Positions 10,943 through 32,000 of a DNA stretch of 32,000 bases are shown one piece after another. The DNA is from an uncultured Opitutales bacterium (GTDB taxonomy: Bacteria; Verrucomicrobiota; Verrucomicrobiia; Opitutales; UBA9783), in contig CAKUSQ010000002.1 in the NCBI GenBank assembly GCA_934691225.1, positions 27,372-59,371 on the forward strand, in the 5' to 3' direction. A model generated the notes under the pieces. That model had not been told where the DNA came from and searched no databases. It saw only the letters and a list, made by a program, of their open reading frames with translations. How positions within the stretch are numbered: the first letter of the stretch is position 1; each line of letters opens with the position of its first letter. The position numbers and the translations under genes are program-made.

Positions 10943-12540
10943 TGTTCTTGTGAAGTTTCTGGAGTTGTTGAGGTATCTTTAAAGCTGTTTACAATCCACT
11001 GAGATAAAATTTTAGAAGCGTCAGCAATAAAATTTTTATCAAGAATAAACGTATCTTTTTGTTCATTACGAGCAATGATCTTTAGGCCATAAGCGAGATT
11101 TTGAAACAATGTATTGCATAAAGATGAAATAGGTTTGTCGGAAAAAATACTTTGTTGAATCAACGCTTGTACAGCATCATCAGTGAATTGAATTTTTATA
11201 TTATTTTCTTTGAAAAAATGTGTTTCATAAGCGTGAATGTCGGAAATCCGTTGATCATTTAATAAGGCTTGATTGTCCAAAAGTAATTGTTTTAAAGCCT
11301 TGTCTGGATCTGTAACTGTATCCGTATTTACCTCGAAAAAATGAATACCTGAAGATGGAAGTTCGAACTTAAAATTGCGCAAAATTTTTTCAAAAATAGT
11401 CATCAAACCTCGCGCTCCCGTTTTCTCTTTTTCAGCTTGTTCAGCTATTTCAGAAATGGCTTCATTTGTAATTTCCATATTAATGCCATATCCTGAAAAA
11501 TCATTTTTGTATTGTTTTAATATAGAACACTCTGCATCAGTTAAAATGTGGGCTAGATCATTTTTGTTTAAGTTATTACAAGCTACACGAATAGGAATTC
11601 GACCAATAAATTCAGGTTCAAAGCCATATTGAATGAAGTCTTGGGTTTGAACTTGATGCAGGTATTGTTGCATTTGGTTTTCATCGGTTGTAGGCGACAC
11701 ATTAAAACCAATAGTGCCTTGATCTAGCCGGCGTTTGACAATTTCTGATAATTTATCAAAAGCGCCGCTGAAGATGAATAAAATATGTCGAGTGTTGATG
11801 GTCGTTTTTCTTGGTTTTCCTTGACCTTTTTGCATATCCATAACGGCCTGCAATTGTCCTAACATATCCGTGGGTGTTACCAAGTTAACGTCGCTTTCTT
11901 CCATGAGTTTTAAGAGATTGATTTGTACACCGCGTCCGGAAACATCACGTCCTTGAGAAGATACAGAAGCAATTTTATCGATTTCATCGACATAAATAAT
12001 TCCGTACTGTGCTAAATCAATATTGCCATTGGCTACTTTTACCAAATCACGAACTAAATCTTCAACATCACCGCCTACATATCCTGTTTCAGAAAATTTC
12101 GTGGCATCTGCTTTAACGAATGGCACACCAATACGTTTAGCTATATTGCGAATAAGATACGTTTTCCCAACACCCGTTGGCCCTAACACAACCACGTTTT
12201 GTTTTAAATATAAATGATCAGCTTTTTCAGGATGCTGTATGCATTGGCGAACATGATTATAATGGTCGCAGATAGCTACAGATAGCACTTTTTTAGCTTC
12301 GTCTTGTTTAATAACGTAGTGGTCTAAATAGTCTCGAATTTCCTTAGGTTTTAAATTGAAATTTTCTATCTGTTTAATAAAATCTTCTTGTTCATCATTT
12401 ATGGTGTTATTATCAGAGCCTTCGTTGTTGGCTTGAAAATTATTTGAGAAGGGAAAATCTGAAATATGTACAGGTATTTTGCCAAAAGCTTCCTCTAATT
12501 TTGCTTTGATTGTATTCAAGGTATCATCTTTTTTATCCAT
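10939..12540 (-). CDS. clpX: ClpX-family AAA+ unfoldase lacking the N-terminal zinc-binding domain and carrying a C-terminal extension
   Basis: LDHYVIKQDEAKKVLSVAICDHYNHV, Walker A GPTGVGKTY, pore loop ETGYVGGDVE, Walker B IIYVDEIDKI, RDVSGRGVQINLLKLME, IGF loop (GTIGFN), EFIGRIPI, sensor-2 KTGARGL. There is no Cys in the first ~90 aa, so no C4 zinc finger. Confidence 0.75.
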   Translation of the reverse strand: MDKKDDTLNTIKAKLEEAFGKIPVHISDFPFSNNFQANNEGSDNNTINDEQEDFIKQIENFNLKPKEIRDYLDHYVIKQDEAKKVLSVAICDHYNHVRQCIQHPEKADHLYLKQNVVVLGPTGVGKTYLIRNIAKRIGVPFVKADATKFSETGYVGGDVEDLVRDLVKVANGNIDLAQYGIIYVDEIDKIASVSSQGRDVSGRGVQINLLKLMEESDVNLVTPTDMLGQLQAVMDMQKGQGKPRKTTINTRHILFIFSGAFDKLSEIVKRRLDQGTIGFNVSPTTDENQMQQYLHQVQTQDFIQYGFEPEFIGRIPIRVACNNLNKNDLAHILTDAECSILKQYKNDFSGYGINMEITNEAISEIAEQAEKEKTGARGLMTIFEKILRNFKFELPSSGIHFFEVNTDTVTDPDKALKQLLLDNQALLNDQRISDIHAYETHFFKENNIKIQFTDDAVQALIQQSIFSDKPISSLCNTLFQNLAYGLKIIARNEQKDTFILDKNFIADASKILSQWIVNSFKDTSTTPETSQEH

Positions 12541-12698: not shown

Positions 12699-14015
12699 AT
12701 GTTTGAGGTTTTACCCGGATTTAGAGATTTTACTCCAGCAGCCTGTGCTGTACGCAATGCTATTTTTACAAAATGGCGTTCTACAGCTCGTATTTTTAAT
12801 TTTGAAGAATTTGATGGTCCTGTTTTAGAATCTTTAGAACTTTTTACAAAAAAATCAGGAGAAGAAATCACCGAACAATTATTTAATTTTGAAGATAAAG
12901 GTGGGCGGCAAATTGCGTTGCGTCCAGAAATGACACCTTCATTGGTTCGAATTTTAGGAAAAAATTTGGCTGTTTTAAAAAAACCTACCAAATGGTTTAA
13001 TATTACAGAAAATTTTCGTTATGAACGTCCACAAAAAGGTCGGTTGCGTTCTTTTTATCAGTTTAATGCTGATATTATAGGTGAAGAAACTTTTTCGGCA
13101 GATGCTGAGTTGATTGCTCTAGCTATTCAAAGTTTTAAGAATTTTGGACTTACACGCGAACATTTTTACGTGCGTTTAAGTGATCGTCAGTTATGGATGT
13201 TGTGGTTGCAAGGTTTCGGTATAAAAGATTTTGAGCTAGCTCAAAAGGTGTTAGCGGTTTGCGATAAATTGGAACGAAAACCATGCCAGGTTATTGAGGA
13301 TGATTTGTCAAAAATTTTACCAGAAAGTATTTCACCGGCTGTATTTTATAAATTGACGCAAAGGCTGAGATCCTCTGAAACGTTAACGGAAATTCGAACA
13401 TGCTTTCAAGAGTTGATGGAATGGAAGGCTGTTACAGAGGTTTTAGAACATCGTTTAGTTGAATTTGAACGTTTATTGCAACGTTTACAAGCATTGCAGT
13501 GCGATGAGTATGTTTCTATCGATTTAAATATCGTTCGTGGTTTAGCTTATTATACAGGATTTGTGTTTGAGGTCTTTGAAGTAGGGGATCAAGGACGAGC
13601 ACTTGCAGGTGGAGGACGTTACGATCAGTTGTTTGAAAAATTGACTGGGCATGCAATGCCTGCAGTTGGATTTGCCGCGGGTGATGTTACTTTAACCGAT
13701 ATATTAGAAAAAAATCGTTTGTTGCCTGCGGTGTCCACGGGTGTGGATGTTTTTGTTATTTTCGATGAAATCATGCAAAATCAAGCACTTCAATGGGCAC
13801 AGAATTTTCGTTGTGCTGGCTATATAACAAGTTATCATTTAGGTGAAGTAAAAAGTATAACCAAGCAATTGAAAAAAGCGTTTTCAGAAGGTGCTAGAAA
13901 CATTGTTATTTTTACCCAAGAAGCTGTTATGAATGGGAAAGCTCAGGTGAGGTATACAATGGATAAGACAGAGACAACAGTGAATATTTCAGAGCTTTTG
14001 CAAGTTATACGCTAG
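12699..14015 (+). CDS. hisS: Histidine--tRNA ligase
   Basis: Class II motifs LRPEMTPS, FRYERPQKGRLRSFYQFNADIIG and AGGGRYD; 438 aa. Confidence 0.95.
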   Translation: MFEVLPGFRDFTPAACAVRNAIFTKWRSTARIFNFEEFDGPVLESLELFTKKSGEEITEQLFNFEDKGGRQIALRPEMTPSLVRILGKNLAVLKKPTKWFNITENFRYERPQKGRLRSFYQFNADIIGEETFSADAELIALAIQSFKNFGLTREHFYVRLSDRQLWMLWLQGFGIKDFELAQKVLAVCDKLERKPCQVIEDDLSKILPESISPAVFYKLTQRLRSSETLTEIRTCFQELMEWKAVTEVLEHRLVEFERLLQRLQALQCDEYVSIDLNIVRGLAYYTGFVFEVFEVGDQGRALAGGGRYDQLFEKLTGHAMPAVGFAAGDVTLTDILEKNRLLPAVSTGVDVFVIFDEIMQNQALQWAQNFRCAGYITSYHLGEVKSITKQLKKAFSEGARNIVIFTQEAVMNGKAQVRYTMDKTETTVNISELLQVIR

Positions 14016-14087
14016 ATGATTACGGAAGTTTAAAGCATAAGTAATTAATATTAGAGCGGAAATTTCTTTTTAAAGTTTAGTAAAATT

Positions 14088-14116
14088 TTGACTTTCTGAG
14101 AATTTTTTCTTAAACT
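14088..14116 (+). promoter_or_regulatory. Putative sigma70-type promoter (TTGACT-17 nt-TAAACT) for the LysM gene
   Basis: The -10 element ends 7 nt before ATG 14124, implying a leaderless or near-leaderless transcript. Confidence 0.3.
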
Positions 14117-14123
14117 TATCTAT

Positions 14124-15047
14124 ATGCGTTTACTTACGAGTTACTTATCGGCTTCTTTATTAATTTTTTCGGTTCAAGCAGCACCTGTATTATCGAATTC
14201 ACCGCATTCACCTTACCGTCAGCTTCGAACATTAATGGAAGATATGAATGGTTTGAAGGAAGAAATTCAAGAATTGAAGAGTGAAAAAACCTTGTTAAAT
14301 AATGTACTTGAAACAGTATCGCAGGAAGCTCAACATCGGAATTTGGCATTTGAACAGTTAACTTCTGAAAATGAGGCTTTAAAGGATACGCTTCAACAAT
14401 TGACGAAGGATTATGAAGCGTTGAAATCGAACTTAGTAGCTTTGGAAGAAAATCAGAAAGGTTTATTGGAAAATTCTGCGTTAGAGTCTGTAAAAGAGCA
14501 GTTAAAGAGCGCAAATGAAAATGTTAGCCATTTGTCGCAATGGAAAGAAGACCGTGAGAAATTCCTGAAAGAACTTCAATTAAAATTGCCTAATATTAAT
14601 AAATTAAGTCAAGAACTGTGTCATATTCAAACTAATACTGAGGATTTTATAAGAGTTTCTTACGAGGAAATTTGCAATAAGATTCAAAGTTTAGAAAGAG
14701 ATATCGATAAAGTAACTTCTGCGAATGCAAAAGCTAAAAGCAATGATTTTCAATTCCAATTGAGTGCTTTAAAAAAGGAAATTACTGATAAATGCAAGGC
14801 AATGTGTCTTTCAACGCTCAATCAAGCGAATGATCGTTTACAAAGTTTAGCACAACAAATGCAAACAAATTTTGATTGTTTACGTGAAAAAAGTTATATC
14901 AAACACATTGTTTTAGCAGGAGAATCTTTAAGTTCGATTGCCAATCGTTATCAGTCTTCGGTGTCGCAGATTTTGGCAGCTAATCACTTACAAAATTCAA
15001 AAAATGTAAAAGTAGGTGATATGATTTGGATTCCTAAAAATTTTTAA
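14124..15047 (+). CDS. Secreted coiled-coil protein with C-terminal LysM peptidoglycan-binding domain
   Basis: Signal peptide MRLLTSYLSASLLIFSVQAAP, then ~200 aa of heptad-like E/K/L/Q-rich sequence. C-terminal LysM: HIVLAGESLSSIANRYQSSVSQILAANHL...VKVGDMIWIP. Confidence 0.8.
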   Translation: MRLLTSYLSASLLIFSVQAAPVLSNSPHSPYRQLRTLMEDMNGLKEEIQELKSEKTLLNNVLETVSQEAQHRNLAFEQLTSENEALKDTLQQLTKDYEALKSNLVALEENQKGLLENSALESVKEQLKSANENVSHLSQWKEDREKFLKELQLKLPNINKLSQELCHIQTNTEDFIRVSYEEICNKIQSLERDIDKVTSANAKAKSNDFQFQLSALKKEITDKCKAMCLSTLNQANDRLQSLAQQMQTNFDCLREKSYIKHIVLAGESLSSIANRYQSSVSQILAANHLQNSKNVKVGDMIWIPKNF

Positions 15048-15421
15048 TTAGTTAGCTTCAAGACATAGGTTATTAGGCATTTTTTTTGTACAAGGCTAAA
15101 AAATTGAATGTAATGGAGGTTAGAACTGTCTTTTTTTACAGAAATTTTAAAAGTAGCTGAGGGATCAAAATCTTTTTTGAAATAACGTTCCTTAGTGATT
15201 GCATCATGATAAGACCACCAAATTCCTTTGACTTCTTGATTATTTTGCAAAAACCACTCGAATGCATCTATGTAAGTGTGTAAAATTTTTTCCTCTTCAA
15301 GTTGAATATGTTTTTGTTGTTTTAAGGTTTTTAAATGAATAACCACAACTAGGCAGACTGAAAAAATCATGAGACTTAACATGAATTCCAGCAGACTGAA
15401 CCCACAAACATTATTTTTCAT
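15044..15421 (-). CDS. Prepilin-type (type IV pilin/pseudopilin-like) protein
   Basis: Class III signal MKNNVCG|FSLLEFMLSLMIFSV: Gly at -1, Phe at +1, Glu at +5, then a hydrophobic helix. 125 aa. Its ATG overlaps the stop of the FtsZ-like gene. Confidence 0.65.
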   Translation of the reverse strand: MKNNVCGFSLLEFMLSLMIFSVCLVVVIHLKTLKQQKHIQLEEEKILHTYIDAFEWFLQNNQEVKGIWWSYHDAITKERYFKKDFDPSATFKISVKKDSSNLHYIQFFSLVQKKCLITYVLKLTN

Positions 15422-16548
15422 GGTTCTAACTTAAGCCCTAAACGTAAATAAGTAGGGGTATCCCAAAAAGATTCGATGCCTTGACCTTCGAAATCAAATT
15501 GAATTTGAACGTGATTTTGTTCAGATGATGTTTGTTTTTTACTTCGATAGCGAACTGTCTTTAGATTCATTTTACTGTAAGAGAGTAAAATAAAAATTTT
15601 GGCTTCCTTTTCTCCTGATAAATGCGAATGGCAAACGTTGAGTAGGGTTAAATCGGGAATGCCTAAGAAACTTTGCAGTTCGTAATTTAAGTTTTTTAAC
15701 TCTGTTAGCGCGATATCATGGCTTAAATTTGTGTAAACAAATGCATGTTGTGAAGGTATATTTTCTACGTGAACTTTTAATGCAGGGCAGTTCATCGCTG
15801 ACTGAAGTGCGACTTCTACCGCTTTTTCACCTTTACCTTCGCCGTATCCCCAGCAGACCGCATCAGGTTTGCCAGAAAAATGTTTAATGAAATCATTTAA
15901 ATTGCATGAAAAGGCTCCCGTTTCAGTTTGAGTTAAACTTGAGAAAAAAGATTGTAGCAGTTGGCTTAATAAATGATTTCCGGCTGCAAAAGCTTCTTTG
16001 ATGGTTGCAGTGTTGGGTAATGTTTGAAACAGAATATCGTTGTAAAAGGGTACAACTAAGTCAGCTAAACTGTGCAATGTTTTTAATTGAATTTGAGCAC
16101 GAATTCCTTTGTTTTTCCCTTCAAAAGAAAAAGGTATGATCGGAATAACCAGTACAAATGCGCCTGTTTGAATTGCTTTTTGCACTGTTGCGTTCAGCAT
16201 TCCACATCCAGAACCACCGCTTAATCCTACTAGTAACACAAGTACATCGAGCTTTTGGCAAAAATTTTCAACGAAATTATCTTCTTTAGCAAAAGATTCC
16301 TTGATGAGAGTTTCATCTCCGCCAGAACTGAATCCGCGCAAAATATTTTTTGCAAAACAGTATTTGGGTAAATTGGAGGATAAACTTTCTAAACAACGTA
16401 GGTCTGTGTCAACTGCTAGACAAAGATCTGTTATGTAAGTGTTTTGTGAAAAAAAATAATTAAGAGCTCGACAAGCAGCACTACCTAAGGCAAGAAATTT
16501 TATTCGTGCACCAGGATTAACAGTAGATTCTTCAAATAATTCCTCCAC
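15418..16548 (-). CDS. Highly divergent FtsZ/tubulin-family protein
   Basis: GTG start. Full-length by-eye colinearity with FtsZ: LAVDTDLRCL, VGLSGGSGCG (tubulin signature), IIPFSFEGKNKG, VPFYNDIL, NLNDFIKHF (T7 region), GYGEGKGEKAVEVALQSAMNCPAL, and the C-terminal DTPTYLR tail. Confidence 0.7.
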   Translation of the reverse strand: MEELFEESTVNPGARIKFLALGSAACRALNYFFSQNTYITDLCLAVDTDLRCLESLSSNLPKYCFAKNILRGFSSGGDETLIKESFAKEDNFVENFCQKLDVLVLLVGLSGGSGCGMLNATVQKAIQTGAFVLVIPIIPFSFEGKNKGIRAQIQLKTLHSLADLVVPFYNDILFQTLPNTATIKEAFAAGNHLLSQLLQSFFSSLTQTETGAFSCNLNDFIKHFSGKPDAVCWGYGEGKGEKAVEVALQSAMNCPALKVHVENIPSQHAFVYTNLSHDIALTELKNLNYELQSFLGIPDLTLLNVCHSHLSGEKEAKIFILLSYSKMNLKTVRYRSKKQTSSEQNHVQIQFDFEGQGIESFWDTPTYLRLGLKLEP

Positions 16549-16579
16549 ATACTAATAAAATCTTAATTTTTTAAAAATG

Positions 16580-18040
16580 TCAACGATAGATCTTTTGCCC
16601 TAAAAATTTCATATTTTTGATGCAGCTCGGTTTTGCAATAAATAATGAGAAAAAGAACAATAAAGTGATAAAAACCGTAAAAGGTATCGTTAGTGTAAAG
16701 CAAGCAAAAGGTAATTTTTCTAAATATTCAACCGACATTAAAAGTATAGCAATACAATGGCTAGCTATTATATTGATTAAAGGATGTAATATTTGAATGA
16801 AAGTTGCACAAAACCAAGTTGTGATGCCTAAAATAACTATAAAACTGGCTAAAGGTATCAAAAATAAGTTAGCTATGAATGCCCAAGGTGTAAATAAATT
16901 CCAGTAATAGATAGAAAATAAACTGCTTACTACGCTTGCACTTAATGAGATTATGCACGAAGTTTTCAGTTTGTAGTAACGATCGATGTTTTTATTTATA
17001 TAAGCGGTTAGTGGTATTCCAAGGTATAAAATGCTCGCTACAACTCCATAGGAAAGTTGAAAGCCAACGTCCCAAAGTTCAAATGGGTTAAAAAAGAGTG
17101 TTGTGCCAATGGTATTAAAAAAAGCTCCTTGAATGTCGATTGGACGAGAAAGTAATTGTGCGCACAAAATGAAGAAAACCATTAAAGAAGCACGTAAAGT
17201 GGATGGGCTAAATCCAACGATAGATGCATAAAAAAACACGCCAGTTCCACTTAAAATAATTCGAAGTATTTTAGGAAAACGAAGTAATTTGCAGATGAAA
17301 AACAAAAATGTGCTAACGACACCTACATGTAGACCGCTAACGGCAAACAGATGCATCGTTCCGGTGTAAAAAAAATGTTGCAACTGATGACTTTCAAGGG
17401 TTTCTTTTTTACCCATTAGAATAGCTCTGTAAATATTTGTGTATGTTTTATCTTTTAAGCTAAGTGTTTCAGAAAAGAACTTACGTTGTTCTTGTAAAAA
17501 TGTAGGAGATGCATAGAGGTCTACCGATAATTTTGCGTACGAAGCATGATGACGTACACCGCGAGACCATAAGTAAAAAGAAAAGTTGTTTGTGACATTA
17601 AAAGGGGGCCGTAAAGGCATAAGTTTCCCTGATAAACGATACGTAAGGTTGTCCTTTAAACAAATGGGATGCTTAGTGTTTATGTGCAAATATACGTTTT
17701 CTTGCCGACCTTCCGGAAGCTCAACCTTTCCAATGCCACCAATTCGCCCTTTATGCGTTCGAAAAATTTTATCAAATCGAAAGGTGCATTCGTGAATTTT
17801 ATGCGGTGCATCCAAGTATTTTTCACTATTTATCATGTGTAATGCAGGATTTATACTTAGAAGTGCACATATGAAAAATTTAAATGATAAAAGTTTTATA
17901 GAGTTAACTTTTATAAAAAACAATGTGAATAAGATGTAAATAACCCAAGTGATTAAAGAGGCATGTGTTAAATAGCAAAACGTACCTATAAGTATAAAGA
18001 TACAAATAAAACTAAAATAACACATTGGGTATTGTTGCAC
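16580..18040 (-). CDS. comEC: DNA internalisation channel ComEC/Rec2 (DUF4131 + competence domain, no metallo-beta-lactamase domain)
   Basis: 486-aa polytopic membrane protein with the FYTGTMHLFAVSGLHVGVV competence-domain motif and an N-terminal OB-like segment. It ends before any HxHxDH MBL motif. Confidence 0.85.
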   Translation of the reverse strand: MQQYPMCYFSFICIFILIGTFCYLTHASLITWVIYILFTLFFIKVNSIKLLSFKFFICALLSINPALHMINSEKYLDAPHKIHECTFRFDKIFRTHKGRIGGIGKVELPEGRQENVYLHINTKHPICLKDNLTYRLSGKLMPLRPPFNVTNNFSFYLWSRGVRHHASYAKLSVDLYASPTFLQEQRKFFSETLSLKDKTYTNIYRAILMGKKETLESHQLQHFFYTGTMHLFAVSGLHVGVVSTFLFFICKLLRFPKILRIILSGTGVFFYASIVGFSPSTLRASLMVFFILCAQLLSRPIDIQGAFFNTIGTTLFFNPFELWDVGFQLSYGVVASILYLGIPLTAYINKNIDRYYKLKTSCIISLSASVVSSLFSIYYWNLFTPWAFIANLFLIPLASFIVILGITTWFCATFIQILHPLINIIASHCIAILLMSVEYLEKLPFACFTLTIPFTVFITLLFFFSLFIAKPSCIKNMKFLGQKIYR

Positions 18041-18047
18041 TGAATAA

Positions 18048-18788
18048 TTAGTGTGTTGATTTAAATTCTAGAATGCATGCTTTTTTTAATAATGATTGCG
18101 GCAGCAATTCTAATTGTATTTGTTCTGATTGAATGTGTAGATTGACAGATCGTTGAAATTGTTTGTTTTTTAGAGTACAATTATAATAACCATCTTTGGG
18201 TATTAACTCACAATGATGCTTAAATATGCAATGTTCATCTACATGACCAATGCATTGATAGGGCAATCCTAACAGTGCATTAGCTTCTTCAATAAAACCT
18301 TTTAATAAAACTTGTCGGATGCGTGAACTGCAAATTCGTTCGTTAGCAAATTTTAAATGTTTGAATACTTGTAATTCTATAGTACCGTCTTTCTGACAAA
18401 GCTGGTTTAATGTGGTGGTATCTCCGCAACGATTATGCCCAAAATGGAAATCTTCCCCTACGTACAAACATTTTAAATTAGGGAAAAGTCGTTTTAGATA
18501 AGCAAAGAATTTTTCTGGTAAATACTGTGACCAGGCTTCTGTAAATTTTTTGATAAAAACATAATCACAACCCAGTTTTTTTAATAACCAGTAACGTTGT
18601 TGAATGGGATAAATAAGTTGAGGTGCATCGGCTAAATGCAAGATTTTCTTAGGATGCGGATGAAATGTTAAAGCTCCTGCCCAAGCATTTGTGGCACGTG
18701 CATTGCGAATGGCTTCACCTATTAAATATCTATGGCCATTATGCACCCCATCGAAAACACCTATAGCTAAGTGAAGAGGTTTTAACAT
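18048..18788 (-). CDS. ribF: FAD synthetase (FMN adenylyltransferase) RibF with a shortened, degenerate riboflavin-kinase domain
   Basis: AIGVFDGVHNGHRYLI, LTFHPHPKKIL, YVGEDFHFGHNRCGD and SSRIRQ. Only ~75 aa follow the LLGLPY linker, and the GRxxGFPTAN motif is absent. Confidence 0.8.
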   Translation of the reverse strand: MLKPLHLAIGVFDGVHNGHRYLIGEAIRNARATNAWAGALTFHPHPKKILHLADAPQLIYPIQQRYWLLKKLGCDYVFIKKFTEAWSQYLPEKFFAYLKRLFPNLKCLYVGEDFHFGHNRCGDTTTLNQLCQKDGTIELQVFKHLKFANERICSSRIRQVLLKGFIEEANALLGLPYQCIGHVDEHCIFKHHCELIPKDGYYNCTLKNKQFQRSVNLHIQSEQIQLELLPQSLLKKACILEFKSTH

Positions 18789-18791
18789 ATA

Positions 18792-19562
18792 TTAAGATTT
18801 TAGCAATTGGTAATTTGCATACGGAATGATGTAGGGTTTTAAACTCTCTATAGAATTTTTCCCTAATATATCATTTAAATCCATTGCGTTTTCAATAGAA
18901 AAATGGCCGCTTTTGATTCTTCTTAATCCAGCTAAATGTCCGCCGCATCCTAATTTTTGTCCTAAATCATGCGCTAATGAACGTATATAAGTACCTTTAG
19001 AACATCTTACATGAAAGTGTGCATTAGGATTATCATGTTGGACTAAGTTAAATTTTTCAATTGATATAAAATTAGGTTCACGCGCGATATCTCGACCTTT
19101 TCTAGCTAACTTATACAGAGGAACCCCCGCATGTTTTTTAGCTGAAAACATGGGTGGATTTTGATATTGATCTCCTAAAAAAGTTTGCATACAGGTTTGA
19201 ATTAAATCGGTATTTAATCCATCTGTAGGGTGCGTTTCTGTTATTTCTCCTTCGCGATCGTAAGTGGATGTTTCTGTACCAAGCTGAATTATGCCTGTGT
19301 ACTCTTTAATTCCACACATGAGCTGTTGAGATAGTTTTGTTGCTTTACCGAGCACCACTATTAAGAGCCCTGTGGCCAATGGATCTAAAGTTCCTGCATG
19401 ACCTAATTTTAAAATTCCAAAGTGATGTTTTAAACGTCGAATGACGTCAAACGATGAACATCCGTAAGGTTTGTCGATGAGCAAGATTCCATCTACTTGG
19501 ACTTGCGTTTTAGCTCGTTGCAAAGGTGTAGAGATGTTAGGGGAGCAATGAATCCAAATCAT
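18792..19562 (-). CDS. truB: tRNA pseudouridine(55) synthase
   Basis: GILLIDKPYGCSSFDV, LGHAGTLDPLATGLL, PPMFSAKK, CSKGTYIRSLAHDLG. The start may instead be the in-frame TTG at 19523, which removes the overlap with the upstream gene. Confidence 0.93.
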   Translation of the reverse strand: MIWIHCSPNISTPLQRAKTQVQVDGILLIDKPYGCSSFDVIRRLKHHFGILKLGHAGTLDPLATGLLIVVLGKATKLSQQLMCGIKEYTGIIQLGTETSTYDREGEITETHPTDGLNTDLIQTCMQTFLGDQYQNPPMFSAKKHAGVPLYKLARKGRDIAREPNFISIEKFNLVQHDNPNAHFHVRCSKGTYIRSLAHDLGQKLGCGGHLAGLRRIKSGHFSIENAMDLNDILGKNSIESLKPYIIPYANYQLLKS

Positions 19563-20493
19563 GAATAAATTCCTTAAATGAAAAATTATTTAAATCACAT
19601 TGAAAGCCTGCGGCGCATATATGTCCACCACCGTTCCATTTTTTTGCCACAACATTGACAGGAATATTAGGTTGATTAGAACGTAAACTGCCTTTGACGA
19701 ACGTTTTATTGTATTCTATAAAAGCGGCAATTTTTGCATTTTTTAACGTTAACAATTGGTTAACAAAACCTTCTGTATCGTTATGGTTTGTGTTGGTATC
19801 TGCATAATCTTGAAACGAAAGTGTTGAAACAACAATAGCGTCTTGGGAGTAAATTTCGACATGATCCAAAAATAAACTTTGGAGTTTCAATTGCGCTTGA
19901 GTTCTGTTGTTGAAGATTCGCTGTATAATTTTACAGGGTTCAACCCCGGCGCGTACAAGTTGTTCAGCACATTCGAACGTGTGTTGTGTGACATTGTTGT
20001 GCGAAAAATTACCAGAATCTGTTAACAGCCCTAGATATAAGGATTCATTAATAAAAGTATTATTGAACCGGTAACCATTTTGACTGAGCAAAAATGTCAA
20101 AATTTCACATGTTGAAGATGCTGCTGGTTCTACGCAGCTAAATTGAGCCCATTTGTCTTCTTTTGGATGATGGTCGATAACTAATAAAAAACGACATTGC
20201 CTAAGCGATTCAGAAACGCGAGAAGGTTTTCCGCAATCAACCGCAATCCAGTAAGATTTTGCTTCAACATCGATATCTTTTACATTTTTATTAGGTGAAT
20301 TATTTAGAAATGTTCTAAAAATTTCAGGCGTATCTTCGGTTACAACAGCGTAAGCTTGATATCCTAACGTGTTTAAATAAACTGCCAATGCAATTTGGCT
20401 CCCTATAGCATCACCGTCTGGACGTTCATGTCCAACGATGTAGATAGGTAAATGCTTATCACAAATTTTTAGACTTTGAGATAAAAAAGCCAT
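19537..20493 (-). CDS. nrnA: DHH/DHHA1 phosphoesterase (NrnA-like oligoribonuclease/pAp phosphatase)
   Basis: GHERPDGDAIGS, VIDHHP, and DHHA1 GGGHICAAGF. Confidence 0.8.
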   Translation of the reverse strand: MAFLSQSLKICDKHLPIYIVGHERPDGDAIGSQIALAVYLNTLGYQAYAVVTEDTPEIFRTFLNNSPNKNVKDIDVEAKSYWIAVDCGKPSRVSESLRQCRFLLVIDHHPKEDKWAQFSCVEPAASSTCEILTFLLSQNGYRFNNTFINESLYLGLLTDSGNFSHNNVTQHTFECAEQLVRAGVEPCKIIQRIFNNRTQAQLKLQSLFLDHVEIYSQDAIVVSTLSFQDYADTNTNHNDTEGFVNQLLTLKNAKIAAFIEYNKTFVKGSLRSNQPNIPVNVVAKKWNGGGHICAAGFQCDLNNFSFKEFIHDLDSLLP

Positions 20494-28607: not shown

Positions 28608-29939
28608 TTAACCTGCAACCAAATTTTCTAAATGATAGCAGTGGCTACCTTTTAAATAGATACAGTCAATGTTTAGTTGCGCCAAAAATGCGGTTACTTC
28701 ATTTGAATTTTCAAACGTTTTGATTTGTTGTGTTTGGGCCCCTTGTTGCTTTAAACCATCTGCTAAAGCTTCTTTAAATGTACCAATACAAATATAAATA
28801 TCGGTAGGACGAATGTGAAATTTTTTGGCTAAATTTTTATGAAAATTGATGCTATTTTCTCCCAATTCCATCATACTTCCTAGACAGTAACAAATGGATT
28901 TTACATGAGGACATGTGCGATAAAAATGTTGAAGACTGTCATTAAAAGCAGCTGGATTGGCATTATAACAATCGATAAAAAAATGTTGGCCGTTTTTATG
29001 TTGCCAAACCCCTCGATTGGGTATGGGTTTTAATTGTTGCAGTCGTTCTTGAATGGTTAACGGCGAGATTCCTATGGTTAATGCATAGCCTATGGCCATA
29101 GCAAATGATTCTGCTGCACCATTTCCACATAAAGAAGGAATACTAAAAGTTTGGTTATTAATTTGTATGTCCCATCCATTGGGAGTTAAATCTAAATGGT
29201 AAGAAATTGTATTGTTGTTCGTTTGTATTTTCCCATTTACGTATTCATAGTATTTTCCGTTACATGTATAAAATTTCGACCAAGTTTTAGGAAAAAATGA
29301 ACTATGTTTAGCTGCATTTATCAATTTAAATTTTTCGTAACCGATGGATTTTATGGATGAAAAATTTTGAAGATGAACTGGATTTACATTAATCAAAATA
29401 GCGTCATCAGGAGATATTATTTTTGCTAAAATATCCATTTCACCAGGGGCGCTTATTCCAGTTTCAATGACTGCATATGAATGGATTTTTGGATCGATGC
29501 ATGTGATGGACAAAGGTATCCCTAAATGATTGTTAAAATTGCCTGGTGTTTTAAATGTGGATGGACCTAATAAGGTGGCTAAGATTTCTTTAAACGTGGT
29601 TTTTCCACAACTTCCTGTAATGGCAATGATGTGCGTATTTAAGGTTTTTCGATAATTTTCAGCAATATTTTGAAAAGCTTGAAGCGTGTTTTTTACAATC
29701 AATTGAGGGAGCAAACAATCGGGAATTTCTTTCTCAACAATAGCAGCACGTGCACCTTTATTATACGCTTCATTAACAAAAAGGTGACCATCGTTTGTTT
29801 TATTTTTTATAGCCAAAAAACAGTCGTTTGCATTTAACAATCTTGTGTCAAAACAAAAATTTTTAATATCAGAATGTGGTTTATTTAACCAATATCCTTG
29901 TGTCCATTTTTGCAATAAAATCGGATCAAATATTTTCAT
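28608..29939 (-). CDS. murF: UDP-N-acetylmuramoyl-tripeptide--D-alanyl-D-alanine ligase
   Basis: Mur ligase P-loop ITGSCGKTTFKE, 443 aa, immediately after murE with an ATGA overlap. Confidence 0.9.
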   Translation of the reverse strand: MKIFDPILLQKWTQGYWLNKPHSDIKNFCFDTRLLNANDCFLAIKNKTNDGHLFVNEAYNKGARAAIVEKEIPDCLLPQLIVKNTLQAFQNIAENYRKTLNTHIIAITGSCGKTTFKEILATLLGPSTFKTPGNFNNHLGIPLSITCIDPKIHSYAVIETGISAPGEMDILAKIISPDDAILINVNPVHLQNFSSIKSIGYEKFKLINAAKHSSFFPKTWSKFYTCNGKYYEYVNGKIQTNNNTISYHLDLTPNGWDIQINNQTFSIPSLCGNGAAESFAMAIGYALTIGISPLTIQERLQQLKPIPNRGVWQHKNGQHFFIDCYNANPAAFNDSLQHFYRTCPHVKSICYCLGSMMELGENSINFHKNLAKKFHIRPTDIYICIGTFKEALADGLKQQGAQTQQIKTFENSNEVTAFLAQLNIDCIYLKGSHCYHLENLVAG

Positions 29940-31486
29940 TTATTTTTTTGAATATTATCAAAAACTTCAACTACTTTTTTATCATCGAAAGGTAAGAAAT
30001 GACCATCAATTTCTTGATATTGTTCATGACCTTTACCTGCAATTAAAAGACAATCCCCAGGTTGACAATGGCGCAAAGCCGTACAGATAGCTTCAGCTCT
30101 ATCGACTATGAAATTTACATGGTTATTATTTGAAAATCCAGAACGTATATCATCAAAAATTTGTTCTTGTGATTCTGTTCGAGGATTATCACTTGTGACC
30201 CAAATTTGGTTTGCGTAGGTCTCTGCCACATGCGCCATTACAGGGCGTTTAGTGCGATCTCTATTGCCACCGCATCCAAATACGACGTTTAAATTTTTTG
30301 ATGTTAACCCTCGAAGCGTTTTTAGTACATTTTTTAAGGCTTCAGGCTTGTGTGCAAAATCGACAAAAATTTTTATGCCAAGGGAATTGAGTACTTCTTC
30401 TAGCCGTCCAGGAACCTGTGAAAATGTTGATAAAGCTGGCACAACGGTATTTAAATCATAGCCTTGTGCGTAGCATATTCCAAGAGCTGTTAAGCAATTA
30501 TAAACGTTAAATTGACCAAGTAAGGCAGTTTTTACAAGCCATTCCCCCGTGGGTGCTTTTAAAACGAAGGATGTACCTGTTAAATCTGTTTGCACTTGTG
30601 TTGCTTGCAGCATAGCTGGCGTATCGATTCCAATGGTAATCAATTTAATGGATGGAGAAATTTCCGATAAAAGGCGTTGTCCATAAGGATCATCTACATT
30701 AATAACAGCGTTTTTTAATCCGGATTGTAAAAACAACTGTTTCTTGGTTTGATAGTATGATTCCATGGTTTTATGGTAATCCAAATGTTCTAAACTTAAA
30801 TTTGTAAAAGCGGCTGTTTCAAATGTAAGTGATGCCGTTCGTTTTTGTTCAATGGCATGCGATGAAACTTCTAAAATGGCATTACGTTCGTGTGATTGTA
30901 CCATTTCATTAAGATAGCTGTTTAAGCTAAGTGCATCTGGAGTTGTTCTGGAAGCAGGGAGGATACGTCGGCCAAGATCATAATGCAGACTACCGATTAG
31001 TCCAGTGGTTTGTTTAAGAGAAGTTTGATATATGTGTCGTAATAGCCACGAAGTTGTTGTTTTACCACTGGTACCTGTAATGCCTACGAGTCGCAGTTTT
31101 TTGTCTGGTGTATTATAAAATTTATTCGATATTTGACTAACAGCTTCACGTATATTTTTTACTTGCACTTGAATGATGTTGTGCAATCGAGGAAACATTT
31201 TTTCGGTAACAATTACTTCAGCGCCCTTAGCAATCGCTTGTTCGATAAAATCGTTACCATCACAATGCATTCCTTCGATAGCGAAAAATAGTCCTTGAGG
31301 TTGTACGCATTGACTATGAATAGCTAGATGATTTATTAAGGGATTTATTTTAGGTCCTGAAATCTTTTGTACTGAAATGCCTCGCAGCAATGTTTTTAAA
31401 TCAATGGGAGTTGACATGAATTTAAGTAAAGGGAATGTGAGTGTTGTTACGGGTGAAGTGAAAATAGGAAGGGTGTTGTTGAGCAT
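29936..31486 (-). CDS. murE: UDP-N-acetylmuramoyl-L-alanyl-D-glutamate--2,6-diaminopimelate ligase
   Basis: GITGTSGKTTTSWLL, and a DNPRTE motif (DNPR is associated with meso-DAP specificity). The true start may be the internal Met at 31417 (MSTPIDLKTLL). Confidence 0.93.
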   Translation of the reverse strand: MLNNTLPIFTSPVTTLTFPLLKFMSTPIDLKTLLRGISVQKISGPKINPLINHLAIHSQCVQPQGLFFAIEGMHCDGNDFIEQAIAKGAEVIVTEKMFPRLHNIIQVQVKNIREAVSQISNKFYNTPDKKLRLVGITGTSGKTTTSWLLRHIYQTSLKQTTGLIGSLHYDLGRRILPASRTTPDALSLNSYLNEMVQSHERNAILEVSSHAIEQKRTASLTFETAAFTNLSLEHLDYHKTMESYYQTKKQLFLQSGLKNAVINVDDPYGQRLLSEISPSIKLITIGIDTPAMLQATQVQTDLTGTSFVLKAPTGEWLVKTALLGQFNVYNCLTALGICYAQGYDLNTVVPALSTFSQVPGRLEEVLNSLGIKIFVDFAHKPEALKNVLKTLRGLTSKNLNVVFGCGGNRDRTKRPVMAHVAETYANQIWVTSDNPRTESQEQIFDDIRSGFSNNNHVNFIVDRAEAICTALRHCQPGDCLLIAGKGHEQYQEIDGHFLPFDDKKVVEVFDNIQKNK

Positions 31487-31490
31487 AATG

Positions 31491-32000
31491 TTACAAAAGT
31501 TTAGGTTCAGGTTGAATTCCCATATAAGTGATTAAGTCTTCAGCTATTTCTTTAAAAATAGGAGCTGCAACAACAGAGCCGTACGCAGTACCTTGCGTTT
31601 TAGGAGAATCTACAGTAATTGTAATTTCTATTTGAGGATTTTGGTTTGGAAAAAATCCTGAAAAAGAAGCAATATGTTGATTGTGTGAGTAACGTCCTTG
31701 GATAATTTTTTGACTTGTTCCTGTTTTACCGGTAACATTGTAGTTAGGTATGTAAGCTTTAGAATGTTCGGATAATAACAACATCGCGCGCATAGTTTGT
31801 GACGTTGTGTTTTTAATAACTTGTCGACGCGGATGTGGCAGAAAACTTCGAATGATTTCTCCTTTTGTGTTGTAGATTCTATGGATCCATTGAGGATAAA
31901 ACAAAGTACCTCCATTAGCGATAGCCCCCATAGCGTAGTGCATTTGAAATAAAGAACAAGCTAAGCTATGTCCAATTGGAAGTCGCGTAATTGTTAAACC
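31491..32000 (-). CDS. ftsI: Penicillin-binding protein 3 / FtsI-type transpeptidase, C-terminal part; gene continues beyond the right window edge
   Basis: KTG motif in VTGKTGTSQK. I checked that the frame stays open from 31943 to position 32000 (…GLTITRLPIGHSLACSLFQMHYAMGAIANGG…). Position directly upstream of murE. Confidence 0.85.
   Translation of the reverse strand, partial: GLTITRLPIGHSLACSLFQMHYAMGAIANGGTLFYPQWIHRIYNTKGEIIRSFLPHPRRQVIKNTTSQTMRAMLLLSEHSKAYIPNYNVTGKTGTSQKIIQGRYSHNQHIASFSGFFPNQNPQIEITITVDSPKTQGTAYGSVVAAPIFKEIAEDLITYMGIQPEPKLL

Follow-up and report, generated by a model that had tools for sequence, protein, structure and literature searches.

Introduction

Few bacterial proteins are as conserved as FtsZ. 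Its loss is classically associated with the PVC superphylum, and how cell division has been rewired there is still an open question. The FtsZ proteins of the Verrucomicrobiota are among the most divergent bacterial FtsZs, they are phylogenetically unstable and their C-termini align poorly (Santana-Molina et al. 2023, PMC9871819). The FtsZ-like proteins FtsZl-1 and FtsZl-2 carry the Tubulin_2 domain (PF13809) and large N- or C-terminal extensions, and they lack a domain of the FtsZ_C type (PMC9871819). Makarova & Koonin (2010, PMC2875224) report a genomic context for them that differs from that of the gene presented here.

The FtsZ homologue of this study is encoded in a window of 32,000 nucleotides, i. 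e. the whole stretch of DNA that was analysed. The host belongs to the Verrucomicrobiota (Opitutales/Puniceicoccales) and is indeed a member of the PVC superphylum, as the original prediction had considered. A search of the literature on FtsZ in Opitutales, Puniceicoccales and CAG-312 revealed no description of the protein family.

Results

The window encodes a true member of the FtsZ lineage

15418..16548, minus strand: coding sequence of the divergent FtsZ homologue (376 aa; GTG start, TGA stop at 15418-15420; open reading frame and translation)

The open reading frame, which had been reported without a strand, is real; it lies on the minus strand and starts with GTG at 16548. An ATG two bases upstream was rejected as the start: it is out of frame, and a stop codon is met soon after. 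The homologues of the family begin with MDEL or MEEL at the very position of this GTG. The label that PGAP gives to the protein is 'hypothetical protein'. The family comprises about 43 clusters with 41-100% identity and was seen only in MAGs of uncultured gut Opitutales/Puniceicoccales from human, ruminant and termite.

The window protein is a true FtsZ-lineage protein. A phmmer search against the FtsZ chains of the PDB gave an E-value of ~1e-19, and the profile-profile alignment with Opitutae FtsZ (hhalign) covers 310 columns (residues 11-325) with a probability of 100% and E = 3.7e-51. The domain models agree only in part: PF00091 (Tubulin/FtsZ GTPase) is found at residues 28-176 with 52.2 bits at a gathering cutoff of 33, but PF12327 (FtsZ_C) stays below its cutoff with 12.8 of 27 bits, and the FtsZ equivalog model TIGR00065 is not passed either (72.4 bits, cutoff 295.2). 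The C-terminal (activation) domain becomes visible in the predicted structure: the AlphaFold model (pLDDT 78, pTM 0.79, confident for the core residues 12-327) aligns with ~312 columns of solved FtsZs, and its top 50 PDB matches in a Foldseek search were all FtsZ (target-normalised TM 0.78-0.90), with no CetZ, TubZ/RepX, BtubA/B or tubulin structure among them. The family profile detected FtsZ chains in the PDB at E-values of 1e-36 to 1e-25, the three archaeal chains 4b45, 4b46 and 3zid, which we take to be CetZ, at 5e-10 to 6e-4, TubZ/RepX at ~0.01-0.07, the 'Tubulin-like protein' chains 7ev*, presumably OdinTubulin, at 0.015, and BtubA at 0.13. Since the best matches in both sequence and fold are FtsZ, membership in the TubZ, CetZ, BtubA-B or tubulin families was rejected. 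The same holds for FtsZl-1/FtsZl-2: PF00091 and PF12327 were the sole Pfam models returned even when E-values up to 10 were allowed, PF13809 did not appear, and the protein has the full FtsZ fold. The colinearity with FtsZ that had originally been noticed by eye is thus borne out by phmmer, by hhalign and by the fold matches.

The strong divergence of this FtsZ is specific for the gene, as originally proposed, because the neighbouring housekeeping proteins ValRS, MurE, TruB, HisRS and Tkt all pass their equivalog cutoffs whereas the FtsZ homologue reaches only 0.24 of its own. A genome-wide fast evolution was rejected as the cause on the same grounds.

A graded series leads from Opitutae FtsZ to the family

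The nearest conventional FtsZs are those of Cerasicoccus, Ruficoccus, Opitutaceae and Opitutus; the window protein is 31% identical to the FtsZ of Ruficoccus as compared to ~20% for E. coli FtsZ. The family and the Opitutae FtsZs are linked by a graded series that runs from P0096 via P0365, P0364, P0095 and P0093 to P0092 and P0366 and finally to the family. Along this series, the TIGR00065 scores fall smoothly (294, 287, 188, 129-102, 89 and 72 bits, with 294 for Ruficoccus FtsZ and 102-188 for the intermediates), and the T1 loop changes from GGAG.N via GGGGC and GGAAC to GSAAC. In a neighbour-joining tree of 309 core columns, i. e. with a simple distance method and with the family on a very long branch, the family and the intermediates group together with 100% bootstrap support and are nested in the Opitutae FtsZ clade at 76%. 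The early idea of an 'intermediate FtsZ' applies insofar as the family stands at the far end of this gradient.

No conventional FtsZ from the family-bearing MAGs was found by name or locus-tag matching among the best 120 matches listed. The FtsZ P0254, annotated as 'Puniceicoccales bacterium', was considered as a co-occurring conventional copy and rejected, it comes from an unrelated assembly.

The nucleotide loops are conserved and in part altered

16462..16494, minus strand: T1 loop region, residues 19-29 (LALGSAACRAL), GSAACR in place of GGGGGN
16201..16233, minus strand: T4 tubulin-signature loop, residues 106-116 (LVGLSGGSGCG), mean column conservation 0.89
15877..15912, minus strand: T7 loop and start of H8, residues 213-224 (FSCNLNDFIKHF), catalytic N-x-D-x-x-D pair incomplete

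The pairings with FtsZ motifs that had been drawn for T1, T2, T4, T5, T6 and S7/H9 were reproduced by hhalign and by a MAFFT motif table, in which the T1 region is aligned with residues 17-26 of E. coli FtsZ. The T1 loop of the family is not canonical: four of the five glycines of GGGGGN are missing. However, the claim that GTP binding is 'eroded' goes too far, since the altered loop is itself conserved. Five of the six positions of GSAACR are the same in 25 or more of the 27 family members (G22, A25 and R27 in 26 each, S23 and C26 in 25 each), and conservation within the protein is highest in the nucleotide loops: of their 79 columns, 44 are at least 90% conserved, as compared to 37 of 237 columns elsewhere (odds ratio 6.8, p = 1.7e-11). 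T5 and T6 are kept in the family, T4 largely so, and T2 reads DTDLRC. For T4, the family consensus is GL[SG]GGTGSG; the window copy has SGGSGCG and retains G111, G112, G114 and G116.

The T7 loop is non-canonical, as had been stated. The assignment of K222 to the second catalytic aspartate depends on the alignment, and the ungapped hhalign alignment places D219 at this position: S214, N216 and D219 correspond to N207, D209 and D212 of E. coli FtsZ, and the loop reads S-C-N-L-N-D instead of N-x-D-x-x-D. Among the 27 family members, column 216 is occupied by Asn (14), Arg (9), His (2), Thr (1) and Asp (1), and column 219 by Asp (18), Glu (3), Asn (3), Ser (1), Gly (1) and Ala (1), i. e. by an acidic residue in 21. 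The phmmer alignment yields yet a third register. The pair is incomplete in every register tested (phmmer, MAFFT, hhalign). The loss of the second aspartate is not peculiar to the window gene: this residue is absent from all 119 conventional Opitutae-type FtsZs that were examined.

Purifying selection is strong, and it is concentrated on the nucleotide loops T1-T6 and on the tail. The dN/dS ratios are 0.03-0.08 in the family and 0.17-0.23 in one subclade, and all assembled family copies are full-length, intact open reading frames of ~375 aa. A relic, as had been considered, or a pseudogene was rejected on account of these ratios.

The C-terminal docking peptide is retained

15469..15567, minus strand: C-terminal linker, residues 328-360, basic and predicted to be disordered, with conserved NLKT.RYR.KK and Q.QF.F motifs
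15421..15468, minus strand: C-terminal docking peptide, residues 361-376 (FWDTPTYLRLGLKLEP), mean conservation 0.97

The existence of the FtsZ-like C-terminal peptide was confirmed, and it hardly varies within the family: W362-R369 (WDTPTYLR), G371 and K373 do not vary at all. In the AlphaFold model, the pLDDT is below 50 across residues 328-376, and a short helix is predicted at residues 365-369. The peptide is homologous to the C-terminal peptide of the Opitutae FtsZs, EDLDVPTYLRRG[IV].I, and WDTPTYLR of the family corresponds to DLDVPTYLRR of the Opitutae. The family and the Opitutae FtsZs have two derived tail modules in common, Q..F.F and D[VT]PTYLR.G[IL][KR][IL].

Genomic neighbourhood

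15044..15421, minus strand: small prepilin-type protein (G|FSLLE), 125 aa, its start overlapping the FtsZ stop codon (ATGA)
16580..18040, minus strand: ComEC-family membrane protein (PF03772, 174 bits), 31 bp upstream of the FtsZ start
28608..31943, minus strand: ftsI (3' part)-murE-murF, then valS, the 5' half of a split dcw cluster (Pfam and NCBIfam)

The prepilin-like protein of the window scores 24.6 bits with PF07963 (cutoff 21.2) and 19.5 with TIGR02532 (cutoff 16.3). In the human-gut and rumen subclades, a small gene with the motif G-F-[ST]-x-L-E follows the FtsZ gene and abuts or overlaps its stop codon, and the prepilin-domain cutoffs are passed only by the copies of the window and of locus L011; the gene is absent from the termite subclade and from the loci of the intermediates. 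On the other side, the ComEC-family gene and the FtsZ gene may possibly form one transcription unit: no terminator-like site was found in the scanned region 14000-19700, and a promoter-like site, a consensus match only, lies at 18141-18113 on the minus strand.

The gene had been described as lying outside any division cluster. This is correct with respect to ftsQ and ftsA, neither of which was found within 10 kb in any locus of the family or the intermediates (~25 loci), but the mraZ-rsmH-ftsL-ftsI-murE-murF half of the dcw cluster is located ~12 kb upstream on the same strand. This order, followed by valS, is seen in locus L038. The other half (mraY…ftsA) was not found beyond ftsI, where the extended locus gave only mraZ-rsmH-ftsL. 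Among the intermediates, P0093, P0365 and P0366 all lack an adjacent ftsA. A tblastn search of the examined family and intermediate loci with the Ruficoccus dcw proteins gave no match for FtsA, and a hand-made DNA pattern for D-M-G-x-G-x-T-D-W-A found six chance matches in metagenomes, none of them FtsA. In Ruficoccus, ftsZ is part of an ftsQ-ftsA-ftsZ cluster.

Discussion

We propose that the window protein is the FtsZ of a clade of animal-gut Opitutales/Puniceicoccales, a fast-evolved and strongly constrained descendant of the Opitutae ftsZ that most likely still serves as a division filament protein; the probability of this reading is roughly 0.6. The protein would still bind guanine nucleotide in a remodelled pocket, with T5, T6 and largely T4 kept and T1 re-specified to G-S-A-A-C-R, and it would polymerise head to tail. 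A conserved adaptor, with FtsA as the default candidate, would tether the filament to the membrane via the C-terminal peptide, and the tethered filament may then direct the synthesis of septal peptidoglycan; the genes for FtsI, MurE and MurF are located nearby. Neither GTP binding nor hydrolysis is assured because the T1 glycines are missing and neither T7 position is invariantly acidic. With the acidic pair of T7 incomplete, GTP turnover, and in consequence the dynamics of the filament, is probably altered as compared to the model FtsZs, being either slowed down or catalysed in a different way. It is tempting to speculate that most of the clade has gained a further partner in the translationally coupled prepilin-like membrane protein.

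The protein might instead be an accessory paralogue that modulates the Z-ring of a conventional FtsZ, e. g. as a co-polymerising, T7-inactive subunit or as a competitor for the anchor of the C-terminal peptide. The incomplete T7 pair and the remodelled T1 loop would be expected for a regulatory non-catalytic subunit, and conventional FtsZ is very distant in sequence. The gene is also never found next to ftsA or ftsQ, but this location is no argument for paralogy because the conventional Opitutae-type FtsZ P0160 is encoded away from ftsA and outside the dcw cluster as well. Moreover, the intermediates form a gradient rather than two discrete classes, no second tubulin-family gene is present in ~400 kb of family-bearing loci (one match per locus), and the full linker and an invariant docking peptide are retained, whereas accessory FtsZ paralogues usually lose both. 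We regard a paralogue as unlikely, though as an explanation to be taken seriously. A role outside of division seems very doubtful to us. Here, an FtsZ-derived scaffold would work with the prepilin-like protein, and perhaps with ComEC or a secretin, in a membrane process related to pili, competence or secretion. The overlap of the FtsZ stop codon with the start of the prepilin-type gene points in this direction, as does the conservation of this pairing in the human-gut and rumen subclades despite different upstream genes (comEC in one of them and tadA in the other); ComEC is encoded directly upstream in the window, and a secretin is found nearby in loci L007 and L008. However, related genomes may share synteny simply by inheritance, Verrucomicrobia very commonly have proteins with prepilin-type N-termini, and the termite subclade and the intermediates have the same protein with the same tail without the pilin-like gene. 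The tail itself is the docking peptide of Opitutae FtsZ, and it therefore points to the ancestral partner.

A decaying ftsZ in a lineage that is about to divide without FtsZ, like the Chlamydiae and most Planctomycetes, would agree with the PVC host, the loss of the canonical T1, T2 and T7 motifs and the split dcw cluster. Yet the selection analysis effectively refutes it: at such low dN/dS ratios, with all open reading frames intact, with the substituted motifs themselves conserved and with the conserved columns clustering in nucleotide loops and tail, decay is hardly conceivable. Less remote, though still improbable, is a bolder reading in which these gut Opitutales have no other FtsZ than the family. 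It would form slow or non-hydrolysing filaments and, instead of a treadmilling Z-ring, build a static scaffold tethered by its tail, and most of the clade would have acquired the translationally coupled prepilin-like protein as a new partner; such a protein would represent a living intermediate stage as PVC bacteria pass from FtsZ-driven to FtsZ-independent division.

The clade offers a graded natural series from an ordinary Opitutae FtsZ to a protein in which the T1 loop has been rewritten and the T7 pair is incomplete, and even this extreme form is still under strong purifying selection and keeps its membrane-docking tail. It is a natural experiment on how far FtsZ can change and yet be retained. 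If the protein is the sole FtsZ of these bacteria, it shows which features of FtsZ are dispensable in vivo and provides concrete sequences for testing the need for GTP hydrolysis and treadmilling. Because the NCBI pipeline calls the protein 'hypothetical', genome surveys would come to the wrong conclusion that these gut Verrucomicrobia have no FtsZ.

Comparison with known systems

The canonical FtsZs of E. coli, B. subtilis and S. aureus have a fold like that of the modelled window protein (target-normalised TM ~0.85-0.9 with solved bacterial FtsZ structures) and share with it T5, T6, largely T4, and the order of a core followed by a linker and the C-terminal peptide D-x-P-x-[FY]-L-R. They differ by the low identity (~20%) and by T1, T2 and T7 motifs that the window protein does not match, and the equivalog cutoff is missed by a factor of four. 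CetZ, TubZ/RepX, BtubA/B and tubulin have the GTPase domain of the superfamily in common with the family, but its profile is far closer to FtsZ. In beta-tubulin, with Lys254, and in GTPase-impaired FtsZ T7 mutants, the T7 loop is devoid of the acidic residue by which hydrolysis is activated in the adjacent subunit. The entry 7oja, which we take to be the D210N T7 mutant of S. aureus FtsZ, is listed among the fold matches of the model. These non-catalytic subunits are an analogy in the way of working only; a heterodimer partner for the family has no support here. Like FtsZl-1 and FtsZl-2, the window protein is a divergent member of the tubulin superfamily encoded outside the division clusters, but unlike them it matches only PF00091 and, weakly, PF12327, and it has the fold and the tail of FtsZ.

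With respect to the divergent group of verrucomicrobial and CPR second-copy FtsZs, the family is the extreme of the trend described for the Verrucomicrobiota (PMC9871819). That study does not include the gut Opitutales subfamily, its T1 and T7 changes, the intermediates or the genomic context, and the divergence of the family goes far beyond that of ordinary Opitutae FtsZ as judged by the TIGR00065 scores.

The closest relatives are the Opitutae FtsZs themselves (Ruficoccus amylovorans, Cerasicoccus spp., Opitutus/Opitutaceae). The family differs from them in T1 (GSAACR instead of GGAG.N), in T2 (DTDLRC instead of NTDAQA), in the first aspartate of T7, which is Asn or Arg in the hhalign register, and in the H8/S7 segment (HFS.KPD..WG instead of AF...GGKTLFG). 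The tail module RG.F.KTERN...GE is deleted, the window protein lacks an FtsZ_C match in Pfam and scores 72 rather than ~290 bits with TIGR00065, and, in contrast to Ruficoccus, the gene is located outside an ftsQ-ftsA-ftsZ cluster and is often followed by the overlapping prepilin-like gene. All the same, both have the same two-domain fold with a colinear core, a T3 loop of the RG[LF]S[ST]GGD type, conserved T5 and T6 loops and a largely conserved T4 loop, both lack the full acidic pair of T7, and both end in a disordered tail with the Q..F.F module and the docking peptide D[VT]PTYLR.G[IVL].[IL].

The protein is FtsZ by fold

Window 15418-16548, minus strand: FtsZ homologue, open reading frame and translation of 376 amino acids

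The gene starts with the GTG at 16548, where the homologues open with MDEL or MEEL too; the ATG two bases upstream is in another reading frame, and the TGA stop shares bases with the start codon, ATG, of the gene downstream (ccATGAaa). The colinearity with FtsZ that had been seen by eye was borne out over the whole core by sequence, profile and structure comparisons: The single sequence matched solved FtsZ structures with E-values of about 1e-19, and the profile of the family, i.e. the protein and its gut Opitutales/Puniceicoccales relatives of at least 41% identity, with 1e-36 to 1e-25. Profile-profile comparison with 16 Opitutae FtsZs gave a probability of 100% (E = 3.7e-51, residues 11-325). 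AlphaFold2, run on the alignment of the family, gave a model (pLDDT 78, pTM 0.79) in which residues 12-327 form a confident core, followed by a disordered region and, near the end, a short helix (365-369); the best 50 PDB fold matches of this model are all FtsZ (target-normalised TM-scores 0.78-0.90, about 312 columns). Because of these E-values, the model and its PDB matches, we conclude that both its fold and its best sequence matches make the protein an FtsZ. The Pfam models agreed in part: the Tubulin/FtsZ GTPase domain scores 52 bits (cutoff 33), whereas FtsZ_C remains below its cutoff (12.8 versus 27 bits).

A TubZ, CetZ or Btub identity is ruled out by the fold matches and by the family profile, which matched CetZ-like archaeal chains (three PDB chains that we take to be CetZ), TubZ/RepX, OdinTubulin-like chains (further PDB chains, presumably OdinTubulin) and BtubA with E-values of 5e-10 to 0.13. 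The Pfam matches and the published family description rule out FtsZl-1/2 (Tubulin_2).

In a search of 5.8 billion proteins, the protein itself was present on 20 contigs (longest 847 kb), along with 42 further clusters of 41-75% identity, nearly all of about 375 amino acids; below these, identity falls sharply, the next matches being ordinary FtsZs (about 24%). With one genome per GTDB species scanned, the family turned up in about 17 species, each represented by an uncultured MAG. Named members are from 'Opitutales bacterium' or 'Puniceicoccales bacterium' MAGs and are annotated as 'hypothetical protein' by the NCBI pipeline and as FtsZ in IMG. The sources are human gut (Hadza samples, MGYG-HGUT-04418), rumen (yak, roe deer) and termite gut; the G+C content of the window is 35.5%. 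In Verrucomicrobia bacterium UBA1183 (locus L028), the gene was recovered as four tblastn pieces at a locus with runs of N, most likely through faulty assembly and not because the gene has decayed into a pseudogene.

Divergence is confined to one gene

Scores of window proteins against NCBIfam equivalog models (bits, cutoff)
ValRS: 1002, 704
MurE: 540, 373
TruB: 231, 151
HisRS: 317, 287
Transketolase: 711, 682
MurF: 278, 289
ClpX: 347, 359
FtsZ homologue (TIGR00065, FtsZ equivalog): 72, 295

Since the other proteins meet or come near their cutoffs, the strong divergence is specific to the FtsZ homologue among the window proteins scored, as the original prediction had proposed; equal divergence of all proteins does not fit these scores. 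The ClpX-like protein (10939-12540, minus strand, 533 amino acids) is spanned by its model only at 48-414, which leaves about 120 amino acids at the C-terminus as an unmatched extension. The RibF homologue (18048-18788, minus strand, 246 amino acids) matches the FAD-synthetase part alone of the bifunctional enzyme (132 bits, cutoff 184), and its riboflavin-kinase domain appears to be missing.

The family probably descends from Opitutae FtsZ

When 1.84 billion representative proteins were searched exhaustively with a profile, the scores formed a gradient without a gap: above 495 bits for the family, then 328 for P0092, 226 for P0093, 211 for P0095, 192 for P0096 and onward, with several of these intermediate proteins matching through to the C-terminus. 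A third search added the intermediates P0364, P0365 and P0366. The TIGR00065 scores likewise fall smoothly, from Ruficoccus (294 bits) and the conventional P0160 (287) over P0096 (188), P0043 (129), P0365 (126), P0092 (115), P0366 (106), P0364 (102) and P0021 (89) to the window protein. The closest conventional FtsZs among the matches listed are from Opitutae (Cerasicoccus, Ruficoccus, Opitutaceae, Opitutus); identity is 31% to Ruficoccus FtsZ and about 20% to E. coli FtsZ. In a neighbour-joining tree (309 core columns), family and intermediates form one clade in 100% of the bootstrap replicates, and this clade is nested within the Opitutae FtsZs in 76%, by a simple distance method and with the family on a long branch. 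Two proteins of the representative library, P0094 (840 amino acids) and P0097 (826 amino acids), carry two complete FtsZ cores in tandem in a single polypeptide.

The C-terminal tail points to the same ancestry. Verrucomicrobial FtsZ tails have in common, in this order, the modules Q..F.F, [RK]G.F.K[ST]E… and G[EQ]DLD[VT]PTY[LI]RRG[IVM].[IL]; in the family and in all intermediates the first and the last are present and the middle one has been deleted (window tail QIQFDFE … FWDTPTYLRLGLKLEP). This architecture is shared and derived; it links the family with verrucomicrobial FtsZ and indicates that the binding partner is conserved. The predicted docking peptide is real: W362-R369, G371 and K373 are invariant in a family only 41% identical overall. 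In verrucomicrobial FtsZs such as P0249, P0160, P0385, P0386 and P0368, the disordered linker carries Q..F.F and [RK]G.F.K[ST]E[PR][TN] as conserved modules ahead of the docking peptide.

A rewritten T1 loop and an incomplete T7 pair

Nucleotide-binding and T7 motifs
T1: canonical GGGGGN, Opitutae GGAG.N; family G-S-[A/S/C]-A-C-R
T2: canonical and Opitutae NTDAQA; family DTDLRC
T3: Opitutae RGLSTGGD; family RG.SSGGD
T4: canonical GGGTGTG; family GL[SG]GGTGSG (kept), window SGGSGCG (G111, G112, G114 and G116 kept)
T5: canonical and Opitutae PF.FEG; family PFSFEG (kept)
T6: canonical and Opitutae ND; family ND (kept)
T7: canonical N-x-D-x-x-D; S-C-N-L-N-D in the hhalign register

Five of the six residues of the altered T1 are each conserved in at least 25 of 27 family sequences, and the intermediates show the steps towards it: GGGGC (P0365, P0364, P0095) and GGAAC (P0092, P0366).

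The alignment of T7 is ambiguous and its register differs between methods. In the ungapped profile-profile register, with which MAFFT agrees, S214, N216 and D219 correspond to E. coli N207, D209 and D212; phmmer places N218 at D209 and I221 at D212, and the original register had D219 at D209 and K222 at D212. The incomplete Asp pair itself stands, as none of the three registers restores both residues. Family column 216 holds N14 R9 H2 T1 D1 and column 219 D18 E3 N3 S1 G1 A1.

Loss of the second Asp is not confined to this gene: among the matches listed, each of the 119 conventional Opitutae-type FtsZs (P0245-P0363) reads N-x-D-F-x-[T/M/A/S]-L, with T, M, A or S at the position of E. coli D212 (see also Ruficoccus locus L033:10001-11302). 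Thus, one catalytic T7 Asp is missing from an entire class of FtsZs that are dcw-encoded and otherwise ordinary, and its absence is, to judge from the sequences, a lineage-wide trait, whereas the other Verrucomicrobiota sampled keep INVDFADL. Both aspartates are required for normal GTPase activity in the FtsZs of E. coli, M. jannaschii and S. aureus; the S. aureus D210N mutant (7oja) is among the PDB fold matches. A further degenerate FtsZ, P0049 (ENA, 450 amino acids, 16-kb contig), has T4 GLGSGFASV, T7 VRITRSHF and a tail, EDLDTPTYLRLGLKF, near-identical to the family docking peptide.

Genomic context

28608-31943, minus strand, continued in L038 (the extension beyond the window ftsI): split dcw cluster mraZ-rsmH-ftsL-ftsI-murE-murF, directly followed by valS
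15044-15421, minus strand: prepilin-type small protein, 125 amino acids, directly downstream of the FtsZ homologue

The minus strand continues after valS with fabF, acpP, a glycosyltransferase gene, tatD, DUF502, mscS, a DHH phosphoesterase gene, truB, the short ribF, comEC, the FtsZ homologue and the 125-aa gene. The dcw cluster thus breaks off after murF; its mraY…ftsQ-ftsA half is placed elsewhere and was not found within 10 kb on either side. As predicted for the window, neither ftsA nor ftsQ is near the gene at any family or intermediate locus examined, and none of our searches found the clade's FtsA. This differs from the classic ftsA-ftsZ pair of Ruficoccus and P0254, but it is weak evidence on orthology because the conventional P0160 also stands alone.

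The 125-aa protein exceeds the prepilin-type N-terminal cutoffs (PF07963, 24.6 versus 21.2; TIGR02532, 19.5 versus 16.3). In the subclades from human gut and from rumen, equivalent genes with G|F-[ST]-x-L-E overlap or abut the stop codon of the FtsZ gene (L011:4092-4610; L024:11125-11697), although the upstream genes differ between these subclades (comEC versus tadA); the curated cutoffs are met by the window and L011 copies only, with the L024 copy below. A consensus scan of 14000-19700, a region that takes in comEC as well as the FtsZ and pilin-like genes, found no terminator-like site. Convergent with the pilin-like gene, and overlapping its 3' end by 4 bp, is a gene for a 307-aa protein (14124-15047, plus strand) with a long apparent coiled coil and a C-terminal LysM domain. 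In Ruficoccus, a LysM protein (L033:1258-2400) is encoded within the dcw cluster between a Mur-ligase gene at the edge of the locus (probably murD) and ftsW; tblastn detected no similarity between the two.

A probable division filament under constraint

With the homology, fold, lineage, selection and architecture of the family established, we favour, at a probability of roughly 0.6, the interpretation that the gene encodes the clade's own FtsZ, evolved fast from Opitutae ftsZ yet under strong constraint and still forming the division filament. The suggestion of a relic is effectively excluded by low dN/dS together with conserved loops and C-terminal peptide. Among close family members, Nei-Gojobori dN/dS is 0.03-0.08 both in the termite subclade and in the one closest to the window protein; the gut/rumen subclade, which is more distant, has 0.17-0.23. 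Of the 79 columns in the nucleotide-binding loops, 44 are at least 90% conserved, versus 37 of 237 in the rest of the core (odds ratio 6.8, p = 1.7e-11), and mean conservation of the C-terminal peptide is 0.97. This is an argument that the protein still has its functional centre in the nucleotide pocket, with the rewritten T1 as part of it. The main rival, in which the protein would be an accessory paralogue alongside a conventional FtsZ, we consider unlikely. Even less probable is a function outside division that would be tied to the pilin-like protein, whose gene is absent from the termite subclade and has no pilin-like counterpart among the downstream genes seen at the intermediates.

As a division filament, the protein would still bind guanine nucleotide within a remodelled pocket, polymerise head to tail and be tethered via its C-terminal tail, with FtsA as the default anchor; since the acidic pair of T7 is incomplete, GTP turnover is probably slowed or altered. 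If this were the sole FtsZ of its genome and hydrolysis were impaired, the interest of the family would be much greater. In the literature searched, we found no description of the gut Opitutales subfamily or its intermediates; published work (PMC9871819) already counts verrucomicrobial FtsZs among the most divergent of bacteria.
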